From the IMG/VR virus record IMGVR_UViG_2526164628_000009: 4,491 nucleotides of DNA, one strand, 5' to 3'. A model generated the notes under the pieces. It had not been told where the DNA came from. It worked only from the letters and a program-made list of their open reading frames with translations, and searched no databases. The translations under genes were made by a program, and so were the position numbers. This document shows, one piece after another, positions 1-4,491 of this stretch. The stretch's first letter is position 1; the number at the start of each line of letters is the position of its first letter. This stretch comes from a virus (Duplodnaviria; Heunggongvirae; Uroviricota; Caudoviricetes).

Positions 1-51
1 GAAACTCCTTTCAGTCAGAGGCGACGCACTGCGCCGCCTGCATATTACTTA

Positions 52-564
52 TCAGCCAAGCCCAAGCGCGGAACGGATGCGATCGGGCACAATGTCCTTG
101 CCGTCCTTCCGGTAAATGAAGTTCAGCAGGTCAATCTCCCACAACGGGCGATCGTTAACACTCAGCTTGTAGTAGGTGTTTTTAATGGCGTAAGTGTGTG
201 ATGTGGCTTCGCCCTGTTTGGCTTCCCCCATATCAATTTCCGTCACACGTCCGCGCATCTCGATTTCATACAGATCGCTTTCTGCATCGGTGTAGTATTC
301 ACCCGCAAAACGCAGCAGCGTGCCGTCAATCGTGCCGCCATATTTAAGGAACAGCGCACGAACAGCTCCCCCCATAACAAAACTCGCATCAAGCGCGGAG
401 TCGTCCAGACCGAGATCAATACTTACCGCACCCATCATGCCACCACCACGATAGCTGTCGGTTTTGCGCGTCAGTTTAGGCAGGGTGACGGACGTCACCT
501 TACCCACTTCGTTTTCACCATCCACAAACAGACGTAAAAAGCGAAGATGTTTTGGTACAGCCAT
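52..564 (-). CDS. FII: P2-like phage major tail tube protein (gpFII family)
   Basis: 170-aa ORF. The translation (MAVPKHLRFL...LPKLTRKTDSYRGGGMMGAVSIDLGLDD...) resembles P2 FII as I remember it (conserved LPKLxRKTxxYRxGGMxGAVxIDLGLDD block). The ATG at 564..562 overlaps the FI stop in a TGATG arrangement, and the minus-strand sequence just upstream reads GGGAGG, a good RBS. Sits immediately downstream of the sheath gene, as in P2. Confidence 0.9.
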   Translation of the reverse strand: MAVPKHLRFLRLFVDGENEVGKVTSVTLPKLTRKTDSYRGGGMMGAVSIDLGLDDSALDASFVMGGAVRALFLKYGGTIDGTLLRFAGEYYTDAESDLYEIEMRGRVTEIDMGEAKQGEATSHTYAIKNTYYKLSVNDRPLWEIDLLNFIYRKDGKDIVPDRIRSALGLG

Positions 565-1748
565 CAGACACCTCCCAGCACCGCAAATGCGGGACCAAAG
601 AATTCATCAGTAAACGACTGGTAAAGCTCCATGTCTTCCAGCGGGGGAACAGGCGTATATTTGTAGCGAATACGCACACGCCCCTGACGTAAATTCGTGG
701 TGCCGTTATCCACCACGTCATACCAGCACGACGCCCCAATCAGTTTCCCGGCAGTAACCAGTGAATCCAGTTTTGCCCTGATGGCACTGATAACATCTTT
801 CACGTTCGCAGGCGTCACTGGACTGTCGATGGTTTCAAACTGCGCTTCCGCAATTGAATCAGCCAGCACCTGTGCGGTTCGGGTATACACCTCAAAGATG
901 TAGGCGTTCGTTTCCGGTGTGCGGTTGCCCCAGAAGCGGAACCCGTTGCGACGAATAATGGTCGTGATTTCTTTGTTGTTGAGGCTGTTGGCATCGCTGT
1001 CTTCGGCCTGCAACGACCAGAACACATGCCTGGACATCCCCAGCACATTTTTAACCGGAACGTTGGACAGCGATTTGTGCCAGCCCTGTTCATGGTCAAT
1101 GTACGCACGGAGGCCGCACGCATAGGCAGGCGCGGGGAACGTTTCGTTTTTGCCACTTTTGGGGTTGTAGGCGATGAAGTCCGGCCATAAGAGCATTACC
1201 TCACGTTCGTTGAATTTCTGGCGGTAGGTAATCGCCTCAGCCATCGTGTTACAGCCGTGACATGAGGCATACACAAACGCGCGCAGTTTACCTGCAATCA
1301 CGCACAGGGATTTTGTTACAGCCTCCGTGTCCAGCTCCGGCGCGGCCAGAATACGCGGACGGTATCCGATGCTTTCATCCTGCTCTGCAACAAGCAGCGC
1401 ATACATCCCCGTATAGCTGCCGTCAGATTCAGAACCACCGATAACCAGTTGATCCTGCGTCTTTCCGTCTTCTTCTTTGTGTTCAGCCACGCGAACGACG
1501 ATCACCTTTGTGCTCACCTGGTCTGCGATGGCCTTAAGCGCACGATAAAGCGTCCCCGTTGTCCCGCATTTTCCCAGCACGTCATTGACGCGGGTCAGCA
1601 GTGTGGGCTTGTTCAGCGGGAACAGCTTCGCGTCCGCATCATCCGCCGTTGCCACGATACCGATAACGCTGGAATCAACATCGTTAATCGCTGTTACCAG
1701 GTCGGTATTTTCCGTAACACGGGCACCATGAAAACGAGTTTCACTCAT
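564..1748 (-). CDS. FI: P2-like phage contractile tail sheath protein (gpFI family)
   Basis: 394-aa ORF, close to the 396 aa I recall for P2 FI. Shared blocks include FPLNKP near the N-terminus, LRAFxYxSxxGCxT...YRQxFxxRExMxxWPDF, EQGWHK(S/T)LSNV, RRxGFRFWGNRT, YTRTAQVxAD and the C-terminal YxYTPVPPLE. An RBS-like AAGGGG lies upstream on the minus strand. Its stop overlaps the FII start, indicating translational coupling. Confidence 0.95.
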   Translation of the reverse strand: MSETRFHGARVTENTDLVTAINDVDSSVIGIVATADDADAKLFPLNKPTLLTRVNDVLGKCGTTGTLYRALKAIADQVSTKVIVVRVAEHKEEDGKTQDQLVIGGSESDGSYTGMYALLVAEQDESIGYRPRILAAPELDTEAVTKSLCVIAGKLRAFVYASCHGCNTMAEAITYRQKFNEREVMLLWPDFIAYNPKSGKNETFPAPAYACGLRAYIDHEQGWHKSLSNVPVKNVLGMSRHVFWSLQAEDSDANSLNNKEITTIIRRNGFRFWGNRTPETNAYIFEVYTRTAQVLADSIAEAQFETIDSPVTPANVKDVISAIRAKLDSLVTAGKLIGASCWYDVVDNGTTNLRQGRVRIRYKYTPVPPLEDMELYQSFTDEFFGPAFAVLGGV

Positions 1749-1905
1749 AGCTTTAGCCCCTTGTATCCGTTAAATGATTCGGCAACAATCATCACCCACC
1801 ACGCGCGTAATCTCACCCCTGTGCCGTTCTCCCGATCCGGCGACAACAAAAAGCAGTAACCCCCTCCGCACGCACATGCGACCATGCCGCACAGGGAGGG
1901 AACAG
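1749..1905. promoter_or_regulatory. Divergent intergenic region between the FI and D start codons; expected site of late promoter(s)
   Basis: 157-bp non-coding gap between two head-to-head tail genes, each with its own Shine-Dalgarno sequence (AAGGGG for FI, GGGAGGG for D). I found no exact TGT-N12-ACA Ogr box by eye, so promoter positions are not assigned. Confidence 0.4.
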
Positions 1906-3015
1906 ATGACCGATACCACCATGCAATTGCTCAGTCAGGGCACAGACCCCGTGAAAATGCCGGATTTTGATATTCTCGCGGAGGGTAAAACGCTGTCAGG
2001 CGTGGCAGAGCGCCTGATGAGCCTGTCACTGACCGACAACCGGGGATTTGACGCGGACCAGCTCACCATCACGCTGGATGATGCGGATGGTCAGTTGCAG
2101 CTACCGCCACGGGGCGCGCGCCTGACGGTTCTCATTGGCTGGAAAGGAGAACCGCTGACAGAAAAAGGCACTTACATTGTTGATGAAATCGCTCACGAAG
2201 GACCGCCGGACAGGCTGACTGTTTCAGCCAGAAGCGCAGATTTTCGGGATGAATTTAACGTTAAACGTGAGGTGTCCTGGCATGATGTGACCGTTGAGCG
2301 TGTGGTATCCGCCATCGCTCATCGGTATGGTCTGAAACCGCAAATCAGCGAAATGCTGATGGATATCGAAATCGACCACGCCGACCAGACCGAAGAAAGC
2401 GACATGTCCTTCCTTACGCGCATGGCGGAAATGCTGGGCGCAATCACCACGGTAAAAAGCGGTAATCTGTTATTCATTATGCCAGGCGGTGGCGTGAACG
2501 CACAGGGCCAGCCGTTGCCATCGTTCGCCATCACGCGCAGCAGTGGCGATCGCCATCAGTTCCGCATTGCTGACCGCGAAGCGTATACGGGGGTACGCGC
2601 TTACTGGCTTGATCTTAATTACGGGAAAAAGAAAAAAGTCAGCGTGAAACACCGCAAACCGCCAAAACCCAAAAAGGAGAAAAGCAGCAGCCGCGAAGGT
2701 GATTATATGGAAGGCGCGGAAGGCAATGTGTTTGTGTTACGCAAGACTTATCAGAACGAGCAGGCAGCAAGACGCGCAGCGGCGGCAAAGTGGCAGCAGC
2801 TACAACGCGGAGCCGCATCATTCTCCATCACGCTGGCATGTGGTCGTGCAGAACTCTACCCCGAAATGCATGGCACGGTAACAGGATTTAAAAGCGAGAT
2901 TGATAATCAGGACTGGATTATTGCAAAAGCCGAGCACACCATCGATAACAGCGGCTTTACCACGCAGCTTGAGCTTGAGGCAAAAATCCCGGAATGGATA
3001 GCAGAAACAGAGTGA
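1906..3015 (+). CDS. D: P2-like phage tail protein D (gpD, late control gene D family)
   Basis: The ORF track gives 1774..3015, but the upstream extension has no RBS. The ATG at 1906 is preceded by GGGAGGG at about -7 to -13. The 369-aa product has the gpD-like C-terminal half (AYTGVRAYWLD, a Lys-rich linker, NVFVLRKTYQNEQAARRAAAAKWQQLQRGAASFSITLA) and lies directly upstream of ogr as in P2. Confidence 0.88.
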   Translation: MTDTTMQLLSQGTDPVKMPDFDILAEGKTLSGVAERLMSLSLTDNRGFDADQLTITLDDADGQLQLPPRGARLTVLIGWKGEPLTEKGTYIVDEIAHEGPPDRLTVSARSADFRDEFNVKREVSWHDVTVERVVSAIAHRYGLKPQISEMLMDIEIDHADQTEESDMSFLTRMAEMLGAITTVKSGNLLFIMPGGGVNAQGQPLPSFAITRSSGDRHQFRIADREAYTGVRAYWLDLNYGKKKKVSVKHRKPPKPKKEKSSSREGDYMEGAEGNVFVLRKTYQNEQAARRAAAAKWQQLQRGAASFSITLACGRAELYPEMHGTVTGFKSEIDNQDWIIAKAEHTIDNSGFTTQLELEAKIPEWIAETE

Positions 3016-3057
3016 GCAACTTAGAATAGCAGCAGCACCACGTTAAGGGAGGTCGCT

Positions 3058-3318
3058 ATGTTCCGTTGTCCGCTTTGTGGCGCATCTGCCCGTATCCGCA
3101 CCAGTCGTCCGGAAAATGATTCAAACACCGTGCGGCAAAAGTATTACCAGTGTAACAACCTGGAATGCGGCGTATGCTTCTCAACACTGGAAGCTTTCCA
3201 TAAATTCACATCAAAACACACCTCCGGCGTTCACTCTTCAGAAGGTATCCCGTGGCATGAGCTGCCAGCTTCACACAGGGGAAACAATCAGATGAGTTTG
3301 CCTTTACCTCAGAATTAA
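3058..3318 (+). CDS. ogr: Ogr/Delta-family zinc-finger late transcription activator
   Basis: 86-aa ORF starting MFRCPLCG...RTSR...YYQCNNLECGVCF, matching the CPxC...C-x4-C zinc-finger layout and N-terminal MFHCPLC...ARTSR signature of P2 Ogr and 186 B as I remember them. Strong RBS (AAGGGAGG) upstream. It is about 14 residues longer than the 72-aa P2 Ogr I recall. Confidence 0.85.
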   Translation: MFRCPLCGASARIRTSRPENDSNTVRQKYYQCNNLECGVCFSTLEAFHKFTSKHTSGVHSSEGIPWHELPASHRGNNQMSLPLPQN

Positions 3319-3509
3319 CAGGCAGAATTGCCGGAGTAACAAAAAAGCGATAGATTACGCGCGGGTGCCTTTCGGCTGATGGTCGGAGGGAATACCCGAA
3401 GGCCAGATGTGGAAAGGCCCCGGAAAACATTTCTGTTTAACCGAGGCCCTAACATATCTACCTTAAGCAAGTGATAGGTTAGCGCCTCTCCAACAAAGGA
3501 GCAAGCGCT

Positions 3510-3650
3510 ATGTCGCAAAAATCGCTTACGGCCATCACGTTCTGCGTGACGGTAATCCTCATCATCTGGATGCTACACGGTTCGCTGTGTGAAATACGGA
3601 TGAGCTTCTGGGGAGCGGAGTTTGCGGCGTTCTTACAGTGTAAGCAGTAA
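3510..3650 (+). CDS. Hok/Gef-family type I toxin (small membrane-active host-killing peptide)
   Basis: Absent from the ORF track, probably below its length cutoff. ATG at 3510 is preceded by AAGGAG (3496..3501). Hand translation gives 46 aa, MSQKSLTAITFCVTVILIIWMLHGSLCEIRMSFWGAEFAAFLQCKQ, with a single N-terminal transmembrane helix followed by the SLCEIR motif and the E-x-AAF motif characteristic of Hok/Gef/RelF peptides. TAA stop at 3648..3650. Confidence 0.8.
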   Translation: MSQKSLTAITFCVTVILIIWMLHGSLCEIRMSFWGAEFAAFLQCKQ

Positions 3651-3659
3651 GGAAACCGC

Positions 3660-3681
3660 GACGGGGGAGCAATCCCCCGTC
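3660..3681 (+). other. Stable stem-loop in the hok-like 3' UTR (9-bp GC-rich stem, GCAA tetraloop)
   Basis: GACGGGGGA (3660..3668), loop GCAA, then TCCCCCGTC (3673..3681), a perfect inverted repeat. It is not followed by a U-tract, so it is probably an mRNA stability or folding element rather than a terminator. Confidence 0.6.
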
Positions 3682-3738
3682 AATCGGTTGCTAAGGTTGG
3701 CTGAAGTGGCACCCTATCTCACAGACATGAACAACAAA

Positions 3739-3770
3739 CCCGCAGCGTAAGAACTGCGGGTTTTCTTTTT
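3739..3770. terminator. Rho-independent terminator, plausibly bidirectional, between the convergent hok-like gene and the minus-strand cargo gene
   Basis: CCCGCAG (3739..3745), 8-nt loop, CTGCGGG (3754..3760), then TTTTCTTTTT (3761..3770) on the plus strand. On the minus strand the same stem is followed by TTTGTTGTT, so it could terminate transcripts from both directions. Confidence 0.75.
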
Positions 3771-3838
3771 GGAACTATCACTAGCTAGTGTACCGTTAAC
3801 GGCACATAATGCTCGCACAACAAACCTGTTAAAAGAGA

Positions 3839-4120
3839 TTACTCAGCATTCTCCTGCTTCCATTGCCGGATCATTTCATCGGTAACATCACCCTCATAAC
3901 ATACCACGTCATACCCTCCATTACGGCTATATGCACTGCGTCCACCACATCTACTACCATTCCTTGCATGATTATAAGGACACGCACAATTGCCTGGATA
4001 AGATTCAATGGATTCTTTAATTATTTCTTTTTTGATCTGAGCATCAGACTTTCCTGTTGCTGCATATCCGCTAAAAGATACTAAACAAAGGCAGATTGCC
4101 ATTAATAAACCACATCGCAT
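3839..4120 (-). CDS. Small exported cysteine-rich protein of unknown function (predicted signal peptide, about 70-aa mature part)
   Basis: The 131-aa ORF-track entry starts at a TTG with no RBS. The more plausible start is the ATG at 4120..4118, giving 93 aa: MRCGLLMAICLCLVSFSGYA|ATGKSD..., with a basic n-region, hydrophobic core and an AxA-like cleavage site. The mature part has four Cys (GNCACPY...SRCGG...VVCY). The gene is clearly more AT-rich than the flanking phage genes. Start choice and function are uncertain. Confidence 0.5.
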   Translation of the reverse strand: MRCGLLMAICLCLVSFSGYAATGKSDAQIKKEIIKESIESYPGNCACPYNHARNGSRCGGRSAYSRNGGYDVVCYEGDVTDEMIRQWKQENAE

Positions 4121-4264
4121 ACCGATACACTCTATTACTAACCAATCATAGCCCACATCATAAAATCGAGATGAGGAGTACAATACCTTTAACAAGAAGG
4201 TGTCATAACGATAATATGTCGTGCAATTCATCAAAAAAAAGATCTATATCAAAGAGATAGAACT

Positions 4265-4491
4265 TGGATTTGCCCCTATATTTCCAGACACCTGTTATCA
4301 CTTAACCCATTACTGGCCTGCTGCCGCAGATATTCCCGTGGCGAGCGATAACCCAGTGCACTATGCGGATGCCATTCGTTATAATGCTCGAACGCCTCTG
4401 CAAGGTTCTTTGCTGCCGTTAACCCGTCTGGTTTAGGCATGATACTGATGTAGTCACGCTTTATCGTTTTCACGAAGCTCTCTGCTATGCC
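4265..4491 (-). mobile_element. IS2 (IS3 family) insertion sequence, terminal 227 bp, truncated by the window edge
   Basis: From 4265 the plus strand reads TGGATTTGCCCCTATATTTCCAGACACCTGTTATCACTTAACCC, the reverse complement of the IS2 terminus (...GGGTTAAGTGATAACAG.TGTCTGGAAATATAGGGGCAAATCCA) as I remember it. The adjacent minus-strand frame encodes the IS2 OrfB C-terminus. Confidence 0.85.
4276..4491 (-). CDS. insD: IS2 transposase OrfB (InsD) C-terminal fragment; the 5' part lies beyond the window
   Basis: The minus-strand frame is open to the window edge: [71 protein letters not shown]. The [15 protein letters not shown] block is the typical IS3-family integrase-core C-terminus. The ORF-track M at 4473 is a GTG inside this frame, not a true start. 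Confidence 0.8.

Follow-up and report, generated by a model that had tools for sequence, protein, structure and literature searches.

Spackle (Sp) of bacteriophage T4 is a phage-encoded periplasmic protein of about 70–80 residues with a signal peptide and one or more disulfides. The classical morons, extra genes carried by phages, include old, tin and fun(Z) of P2 and bor and lom of lambda. Excalibur is a small extracellular accessory domain of secreted nucleases, and the ComEA-type proteins (HHH_3) are periplasmic DNA-binding proteins. Here we describe a gene that invites comparison with each of these: a 93-residue open reading frame (ORF) at the end of a P2-like prophage, lying in 4,491 nucleotides of viral DNA (Caudoviricetes; IMG/VR record IMGVR_UViG_2526164628_000009). 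This whole stretch is called the window, and positions refer to it unless a contig is named. It is highly probable that the ORF is a real, exported cargo gene. The best overall explanation, which we hold with about even confidence, is that of an exported cargo gene for a periplasmic basic-loop binding module, with DNA binding or exclusion as the best guess at its role. Taken separately, the assignment of the protein as a periplasmic binding module is evenly balanced, and that of DNA as ligand, or of an exclusion role, is tentative and more to be doubted than believed.

The cargo segment and its gene

By megablast against deposited phages, the window, which is the right end of a P2-like prophage, has a P88-like backbone (genus Xuanwuvirus, Peduoviridae), with 94–97% identity from position 1 to about 3720–3770. 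In Escherichia coli 55989 (contig L082) the prophage is flanked by 124-bp direct repeats (attachment sites, att; L082 28–151 and 35672–35795) that take in the 3′ half of a tRNA-Leu gene, leuZ; the P88-like prophage is integrated at this tRNA gene. The cargo gene lies inside these borders (L082 34921–35202), 470 bp from the right attachment site (attR). The cargo end of the window comprises the following features.

3771–4264 (no strand): AT-rich cargo (moron) segment, its far end cut by IS2, placed by the drop in G+C content and the stop of identity with P88
3839–4120, minus: coding sequence of 93 residues plus stop (MRCGLL...QENAE), precursor of a small exported four-cysteine protein
4061–4120, minus: predicted signal peptide, residues 1–20 (MRCGLLMAICLCLVSFSGYA), likely cleaved between GYA and AT, from heuristic n-, h- and c-region analysis
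3842–4060, minus: mature 73-residue domain, modeled as helix, basic four-cysteine loop, helix (AlphaFold2 model mebf3596cebe1)
3884–4000, minus: conserved core, residues 41–79 (YPGNCACPYNHARNGSRCGGRSAYSRNGGYDVVCYEGDV), from an alignment of 106 homologs
4121–4264, minus: 5′ untranslated/upstream region of the cargo gene, G+C content 0.33; IS2 separates it from the rest of the native upstream DNA
4265–4491, minus: right end of IS2, with the terminal repeat from 4265 and the C terminus of the transposase at 4276–4473, co-oriented with the cargo gene

Horizontal acquisition brought this segment, a cargo (moron) cassette, into a variable slot whose borders are the hok terminator and the attachment site. 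In the alignment with P88, the two sequences are identical through the T-run of that terminator and unrelated past about 3770, and the same slot holds an unrelated 80-residue gene in P88 and two other genes in PhiR44_2. Segment and ORF have G+C contents of 0.389 and 0.408, respectively, whereas the backbone (1–3770) stands at 0.530, its lowest 494-bp window at 0.474 and its standard deviation at 0.020; at third codon positions the ORF has 0.287, compared with 0.49–0.70 in five neighbouring phage genes. Without IS2, the foreign segment extends about 410 bp further, as far as attR, and in this uninterrupted form the same cargo DNA is present in 576 of 5,426 complete E. coli genomes, many of them O157:H7. 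Of the same genomes, 1,179 have the ogr-hok backbone. The feature is of an ordinary kind, a classical moron by its position within the prophage, its deviant composition and the variability of the slot among collinear phages.

A first-pass annotation of the window, made from its letters alone, had described an AT-rich island of separately acquired DNA at 3830–4264, with a sharp drop in composition relative to the flanking phage genes. The drop exceeds the scatter of the backbone and the foreign origin stands, but the island begins at about 3771, directly past the T-run, rather than at 3830. The same annotation held that the cargo gene converges with the hok-like gene and shares its terminator. 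The genes are indeed convergent, and a G+C-rich hairpin at 3736–3763 scores as a terminator on both strands; yet this hairpin is to be counted with the backbone or hok module, because it is kept in phage P88, and its shared use is only plausible.

The 93-residue ORF exists as that annotation described it (3839–4120, minus strand). Identical DNA in E. coli 55989 is annotated in RefSeq as WP_001303543.1, a "hypothetical protein." Members of the family typically have 90–106 residues, so that 93 residues is full length; the possibility that the ORF is a fragment of a larger disrupted gene, raised in the first reading, is ruled out by this length and by the position of IS2 outside the ORF. A start at the ATG at 4120 is supported because the homologs begin there with signal peptides of their own. 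The 130/131-residue frame (TTG at 4234, ATG at 4231) preferred by many metagenome gene callers was rejected, its 5′ extension having no counterpart in other genera. Compared with a 74%-identical allele (contig L117), the ratio of nonsynonymous to synonymous substitution rates is 0.125 overall and 0.069 for the mature part; judged by these comparisons, the gene is intact and under purifying selection.

The junctions of the segment have features of their own. At its start, past the hok terminator but short of the cargo stop codon, lies a perfect 10-bp palindrome, CCGTTAACGG (3793–3802). On the other side of the gene, between it and attR in E. coli 55989 (L082 ~35395–35562), is a second, degenerate copy of the region from the ogr 3′ end through sok and hok, with internal deletions, about 72% identical to window positions 3286–3308, 3342–3450 and 3579–3606. 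The placement of the cargo between an intact hok locus and a hok remnant suggests that it arrived by recombination of two related phage ends.

The predicted exported protein and its relatives

The N terminus of the precursor consists of a basic residue (R2), a hydrophobic core with a Kyte–Doolittle mean of 3.2, and G-Y-A followed by A after residue 20. By this heuristic analysis of n-, h- and c-regions, a Sec-type signal peptide cleaved by signal peptidase I, and with it export to the periplasm, is strongly indicated. A signal-peptide-like N terminus, taken as a hydrophobic 9-mer (Kyte–Doolittle ≥ 1.8) preceding the domain, is found in 104 of the 106 homologs, and every identifiable partner domain of the longer relatives was judged to be extracytoplasmic; the exported Cys-rich precursor of the first-pass annotation is upheld on all these points. 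A lipoprotein was considered and rejected, the lipobox [LVI][ASTVI][GAS]C being absent from the window protein and present in only one of the 106 homologs.

The mature part has exactly four cysteines, C45, C47, C58 and C74 (codons at 3986–3988, 3980–3982, 3947–3949 and 3899–3901), all invariant in the 106 homologs, as are S37, Y41, P48, G55, G59, R61, S62, A63 and G69. Every invariant column of the core motif, YPGxCxCPY...NGSxCGxRSAxS..GG....CY..DV, is present in the window protein. In the AlphaFold2 model (predicted local distance difference test score 84.7, predicted template modeling score 0.72), helices are predicted at mature residues 6–20 and 61–71. In most members of the family the domain is basic, with a median isoelectric point of 8.9 and a median net charge of the loop of +4 (R53, R57, R61, R66).

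The family is large. A word-indexed search gave 235 clusters at E ≤ 1e-3, all named "hypothetical," and a profile search of 1.84 billion representatives gave 2,307 proteins at E ≤ 1e-3 and 1,477 at E ≤ 1e-10; at least 338 matching stretches turned up when each species was represented by a single genome. The relatives range over the Proteobacteria and the cyanobacteria, with Acinetobacter, Pantoea, Klebsiella, Kosakonia, Pseudomonas, Xanthomonas, Sphingomonas, Caulobacter and cyanobacterial metagenome-assembled genomes (MAGs) among their hosts. The first-pass annotation could not place the protein in a family, and this judgement was correct. Scans of the 93-residue protein against Pfam and NCBIfam gave nothing usable, with only a sub-threshold Sclerostin match at E ≤ 1 in Pfam, and searches of PDB sequences by phmmer and by profile gave chance-level matches or none. 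Comparison with solved structures, T4 Spackle included, found no similarity of sequence or fold, and Foldseek found no match in BFVD. Membership in the cystine-knot family Sclerostin (PF05463) was rejected at 18 bits against a cut-off of 27 (E = 0.0024), with no cystine-knot structure among the fold matches. Excalibur (PF05901) was likewise set aside: there is no Pfam match at E ≤ 1 and no DxDxDGxxCE loop, and the loop is Arg-rich. The sole assignment is to PHROG 27544 (E = 7e-58, residues 13–93, all 81 profile positions covered), with weaker matches to phrog_14503 ("membrane associated protein") and phrog_3117. Membership in PHROG 27544 explains nothing, because that family has no name or function.

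Among the 150 best representatives, 48 have at least 150 residues, and in these long members the Pfam partners are SH3_3 (12), SH3_4 (7), PG_binding_1 (3), SNase (3) and, once each, PG_binding_2, TonB_C, GmrSD_C and CBS. Wall-binding or anchored architectures include membrane anchor–SH3_3–domain, signal peptide–domain–PG_binding_1 and signal peptide–domain–TonB_C. Those with nucleases are signal peptide–SNase–domain, signal peptide–domain–SNase and signal peptide–domain–GmrSD_C nuclease. The domain can stand at either end of SNase (P0127, P0175) and can occur in tandem copies (P0121). At one locus (L069) the neighbouring SNase ends in Excalibur, in the position taken by the Cys domain in P0127.

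Genes for secreted nucleases of three unrelated folds lie within 2.6 kb of the family gene in 6 of 80 genome loci: SNase (L006, L063, L069), PLDc_2 (L018, L063) and Endonuclease_NS (L007, L066). The outer 3–6 kb of the 80 loci contained no secreted nuclease gene. At L063 (5488–7221, a proteobacterial MAG), consecutive genes for exported proteins encode SNase, the Cys-domain protein, a ComEA-like HHH_3 protein and a PLD-family nuclease, a row that looks like an extracellular or periplasmic DNA-processing cluster.

Mobile elements have taken up the gene many times. In IMG/VR, 171 viral contigs encode relatives. The E. coli allele always lies about 0.4–2.3 kb from a contig end where the flank is resolved; other alleles are found mid-contig, among Rha, Doc and tape-measure genes or AAA-ATPase genes, and some copies adjoin Abi, AAA-ATPase, Rha or Doc genes. 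About 110 plasmids also encode relatives, among them 35 Xanthomonas conjugative plasmids, 30 Pantoea megaplasmids, a 4.7-kb Cobetia plasmid with only five genes and seven small ColE1-type plasmids of E. coli, E. marmotae and Shigella. On the three colicin N plasmids inspected, a 100-residue homolog lies directly downstream of the gene for an "Exc2 family lipoprotein," in a row of four genes of conserved order (L165 60–1814, L167 369–2123, L169 4933–6687): a 146-residue helix-turn-helix-like protein, the Exc2 family lipoprotein, the homolog (WP_024139129.1) and a 104-residue cytoplasmic hypothetical protein. The 5.6-kb plasmid CP057771.1 has no Exc2 gene annotated beside its homolog.

Some of the viral copies deserve separate mention. 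About 36 near-identical prophage contigs of 45–52 kb (L128–L163) carry a 97-residue, 48%-identical allele 1 kb from their end (e.g. L128 4974–5267), which adjoins a hiuH-like transthyretin gene and closely resembles the allele of the colicin N plasmids. This allele was dropped as proof of a second prophage lineage, since it may lie in host flank. Viral contig L121 has two family genes 1.2 kb apart (3460–3756 and ~4992–5288).

Candidate functions

According to the best explanation, cleavage would release a protein of about 73 residues into the periplasm, where the four cysteines (CxC...C...C) would be cross-linked, or would possibly hold a metal, and would stiffen a conserved, positively charged loop (R53, R57, R61 and R66; CGxRSAYSR) clamped by the two helices. 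The protein would be the free-standing form of a binding module that elsewhere is fused to membrane anchors, SH3_3, PG_binding_1, TonB_C and secreted nucleases. Its ligand would be an anionic envelope polymer, most likely DNA, with peptidoglycan as the main alternative, and the lysogen would gain an altered fate of DNA or envelope on contact with other mobile elements, amounting to exclusion-type protection. The case for a role in exclusion or superinfection is circumstantial, drawn from the adjacency to exc2 on colicin N plasmids and from carriage on mobile elements. In its boldest form, which we regard as a long shot, the domain would be a new periplasmic DNA-binding fold, joined in bacteria to secreted nucleases and wall anchors, whose free copies on prophages and small plasmids intercept or divert DNA crossing the envelope; if true, this would be a new type of superinfection or entry exclusion, aimed at the incoming nucleic acid and not at a receptor.

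Several results weigh against this explanation. The E. coli copy is acidic overall (isoelectric point 5.3), with a loop charge still of +3. Only 6 of 80 loci and 4 of the 48 long proteins show a link to a nuclease, the 79 viral loci have no secreted nuclease gene at all, and cell-wall-binding partners outnumber nucleases; because of this last point, peptidoglycan or another envelope ligand is equally defensible. No conserved partner gene was found among 148 neighbours in 37 genera, where none of the 91 Pfam families occurs more than twice, and clustering of 1,288 neighbouring ORFs by BLAST gave only within-genus synteny and no conserved operon partner. No copy was detected by tblastn in 50,697 deposited phage genomes, so that all of the phage evidence comes from prophages. 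The 93-residue protein matches no family in PADLOC-DB at E ≤ 1, and the literature yielded no report on any member of the family. Finally, no sigma-70 consensus was found upstream of the gene in either the window or the uninterrupted prophage of E. coli 55989, and the Shine–Dalgarno sequence is only weak.

A different proposal, which we consider rather unlikely, is that the protein is a cell-wall-directed factor that binds or modulates peptidoglycan or a peptidoglycan-acting enzyme, the prophage copy protecting the wall of the lysogen. SH3_3, SH3_4, PG_binding_1, PG_binding_2 and TonB_C, in the counts given above, make wall-binding domains the commonest partners, and in such architectures as signal peptide–domain–PG_binding_1 and membrane anchor–SH3_3–domain there is nothing else that could be the functional domain. 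One form of such a factor would be a periplasmic inhibitor of a lysozyme or of a tail-associated muralytic enzyme, the way in which Spackle of T4 keeps out superinfecting phage. The cargo protein is small, exported and borne by a prophage.

As the first-pass annotation proposed, the adjoining element is IS2: its terminal sequence begins at 4265, and the 65-residue C-terminal ORF matches positions 237–301 of the 301 of NCBIfam "IS2 transposase TnpB" (E = 1e-40). IS2 is multicopy in E. coli. Here it sits 145 bp upstream of the cargo start codon with its transposase reading towards the gene, and the junction at 4264/4265 occurs in none of the 5,426 complete E. coli genomes, which makes the insertion recent or strain-specific. 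It may have severed upstream signals, or it may drive the cargo gene by read-through. An unlikely reading is that the gene is a silent passenger, intact and unexpressed here through H-NS silencing of AT-rich DNA, through loss of a promoter cut off by IS2, or both. The missing consensus promoter, the 33% G+C content of the upstream DNA and the recent IS2 so near the start codon would all fit such silence; set against them are the strong purifying selection among E. coli alleles and the retention of the gene in 576 genomes, and transcription from IS2, which runs towards the gene, could equally drive its expression.

The four cysteines themselves suggest another role, quite improbable in our estimation, in periplasmic metal handling: they would coordinate zinc or copper instead of forming disulfides, and the protein would buffer or deliver metal in the envelope, for example for secreted nucleases. 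Exactly four invariant cysteines in a knuckle-like CxCP motif followed by CG, and a domain that takes the place of the calcium-binding Excalibur on SNase proteins, are what such a role might look like. It is countered by the Arg-rich loop and by the lack of conserved His, Asp or Glu ligands; the 25 most frequent Pfam families listed from the 148 neighbours include no metal-resistance or transport genes, and a Cys4 metal site would be out of the ordinary in a compartment as oxidising as the periplasm.

That the protein is a lysogenic-conversion factor for an animal host, a secreted virulence or colonisation protein, as the first-pass annotation had hinted, is very improbable: a prophage moron with an exported Cys-rich product in many pathogenic E. 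coli (O157:H7, O145:H28, O55:H7, 55989) would suit it, but the hint gains no support, since in E. coli a Sec signal by itself takes a protein no further than the periplasm, relatives are tethered to membrane or wall, no secretion-system genes lie nearby, and the family's commonness in bacteria of soil, water and plants (Acinetobacter, Pantoea, Xanthomonas, Sphingomonas, Caulobacter) and in cyanobacterial MAGs makes a general envelope role more likely.

About one in ten complete E. coli genomes has the gene, including those of O157:H7, O145 and enteroaggregative strains, and it represents a family of thousands on chromosomes, prophages and plasmids that is without a Pfam model, a structure, a fold match or a literature. 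Its repeated capture by mobile elements, together with its association with nucleases, wall domains and an exclusion lipoprotein, provides a periplasmic hypothesis that is concrete and cheap to test. Should a phenotype be found, thousands of "hypothetical proteins" would be annotated together; should there be none, the gene would be an ordinary uncharacterised moron.

The prophage end and described systems

The backbone that carries the cargo contributes the remaining features of the window.

52–564, minus: tail tube
564–1748, minus: tail sheath
1906–3015, plus: gpD, a full reading frame of 369 residues
3058–3318, plus: Ogr/Delta zinc-finger activator
3363–3650, plus: hok/sok-type type I toxin-antitoxin locus, with a sok-like RNA match at 3363–3520 and a Hok/Gef coding sequence at 3510–3650
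3736–3763 (no strand): G+C-rich hairpin with a terminator score on both strands, which closes the hok module at its 3′ end and would probably also terminate transcription of the convergent cargo gene

The sok-like RNA scores 47.9 bits with the Rfam sok model (E = 8.7e-9), short of the gathering score of 59. The Hok/Gef coding sequence matches Pfam HOK_GEF at 30.1 bits (cut-off 22) and NCBIfam HokA at E = 6e-9. In E. coli 55989 the counterpart of gpD (L001 4463–5316) is annotated as an 801-bp coding sequence beside a pseudogene fragment, and that copy of the prophage may therefore be defective. The same prophage has a second likely moron, outside the window: a serine acetyltransferase gene (L082 26516–27088), flanked by the gene for tail-fibre assembly and by the inverted tail module. 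One publication, on a rare gene that promotes fitness and comes from a genomic island of CFT073, reportedly mentions P2-like elements.

Of the described families and systems, PHROG 27544 is the closest, its likeness to the cargo protein being direct sequence membership among prophage-encoded protein families; its profile begins within the signal peptide, whereas the family alignment favours the ATG at 4120. With the classical morons the cargo gene has in common that it is a single extra gene of low G+C content in a variable slot, with a terminator-like hairpin after it and with different cargo in different relatives. It differs from them in having no recognisable promoter of its own, no similarity to those proteins and no PADLOC match, and only P88-like phages have this slot, which runs from the hok terminator to attR.

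The cargo family resembles Excalibur in being small, Cys-containing, extracytoplasmic and appended to SNase. It is unlike Excalibur in sequence, in the absence of a DxDxDG calcium loop and in its domain, which is basic and not acidic. The ComEA-type proteins share with it the form of a small exported protein, and one family member adjoins a ComEA-like gene; their sequence and predicted fold are wholly different, and DNA binding by the cargo domain is only inferred. T4 Spackle and other small periplasmic superinfection-exclusion proteins offer a plausible functional analogy for a prophage cargo gene, with the differences that there is no similarity of sequence or fold and that the family of the cargo protein is mostly non-phage and widely distributed. 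By analogy with these systems, the cargo protein may act in the manner of Excalibur or ComEA, as an accessory module in the handling of extracellular DNA, or in that of Spackle, as an agent of periplasmic exclusion.

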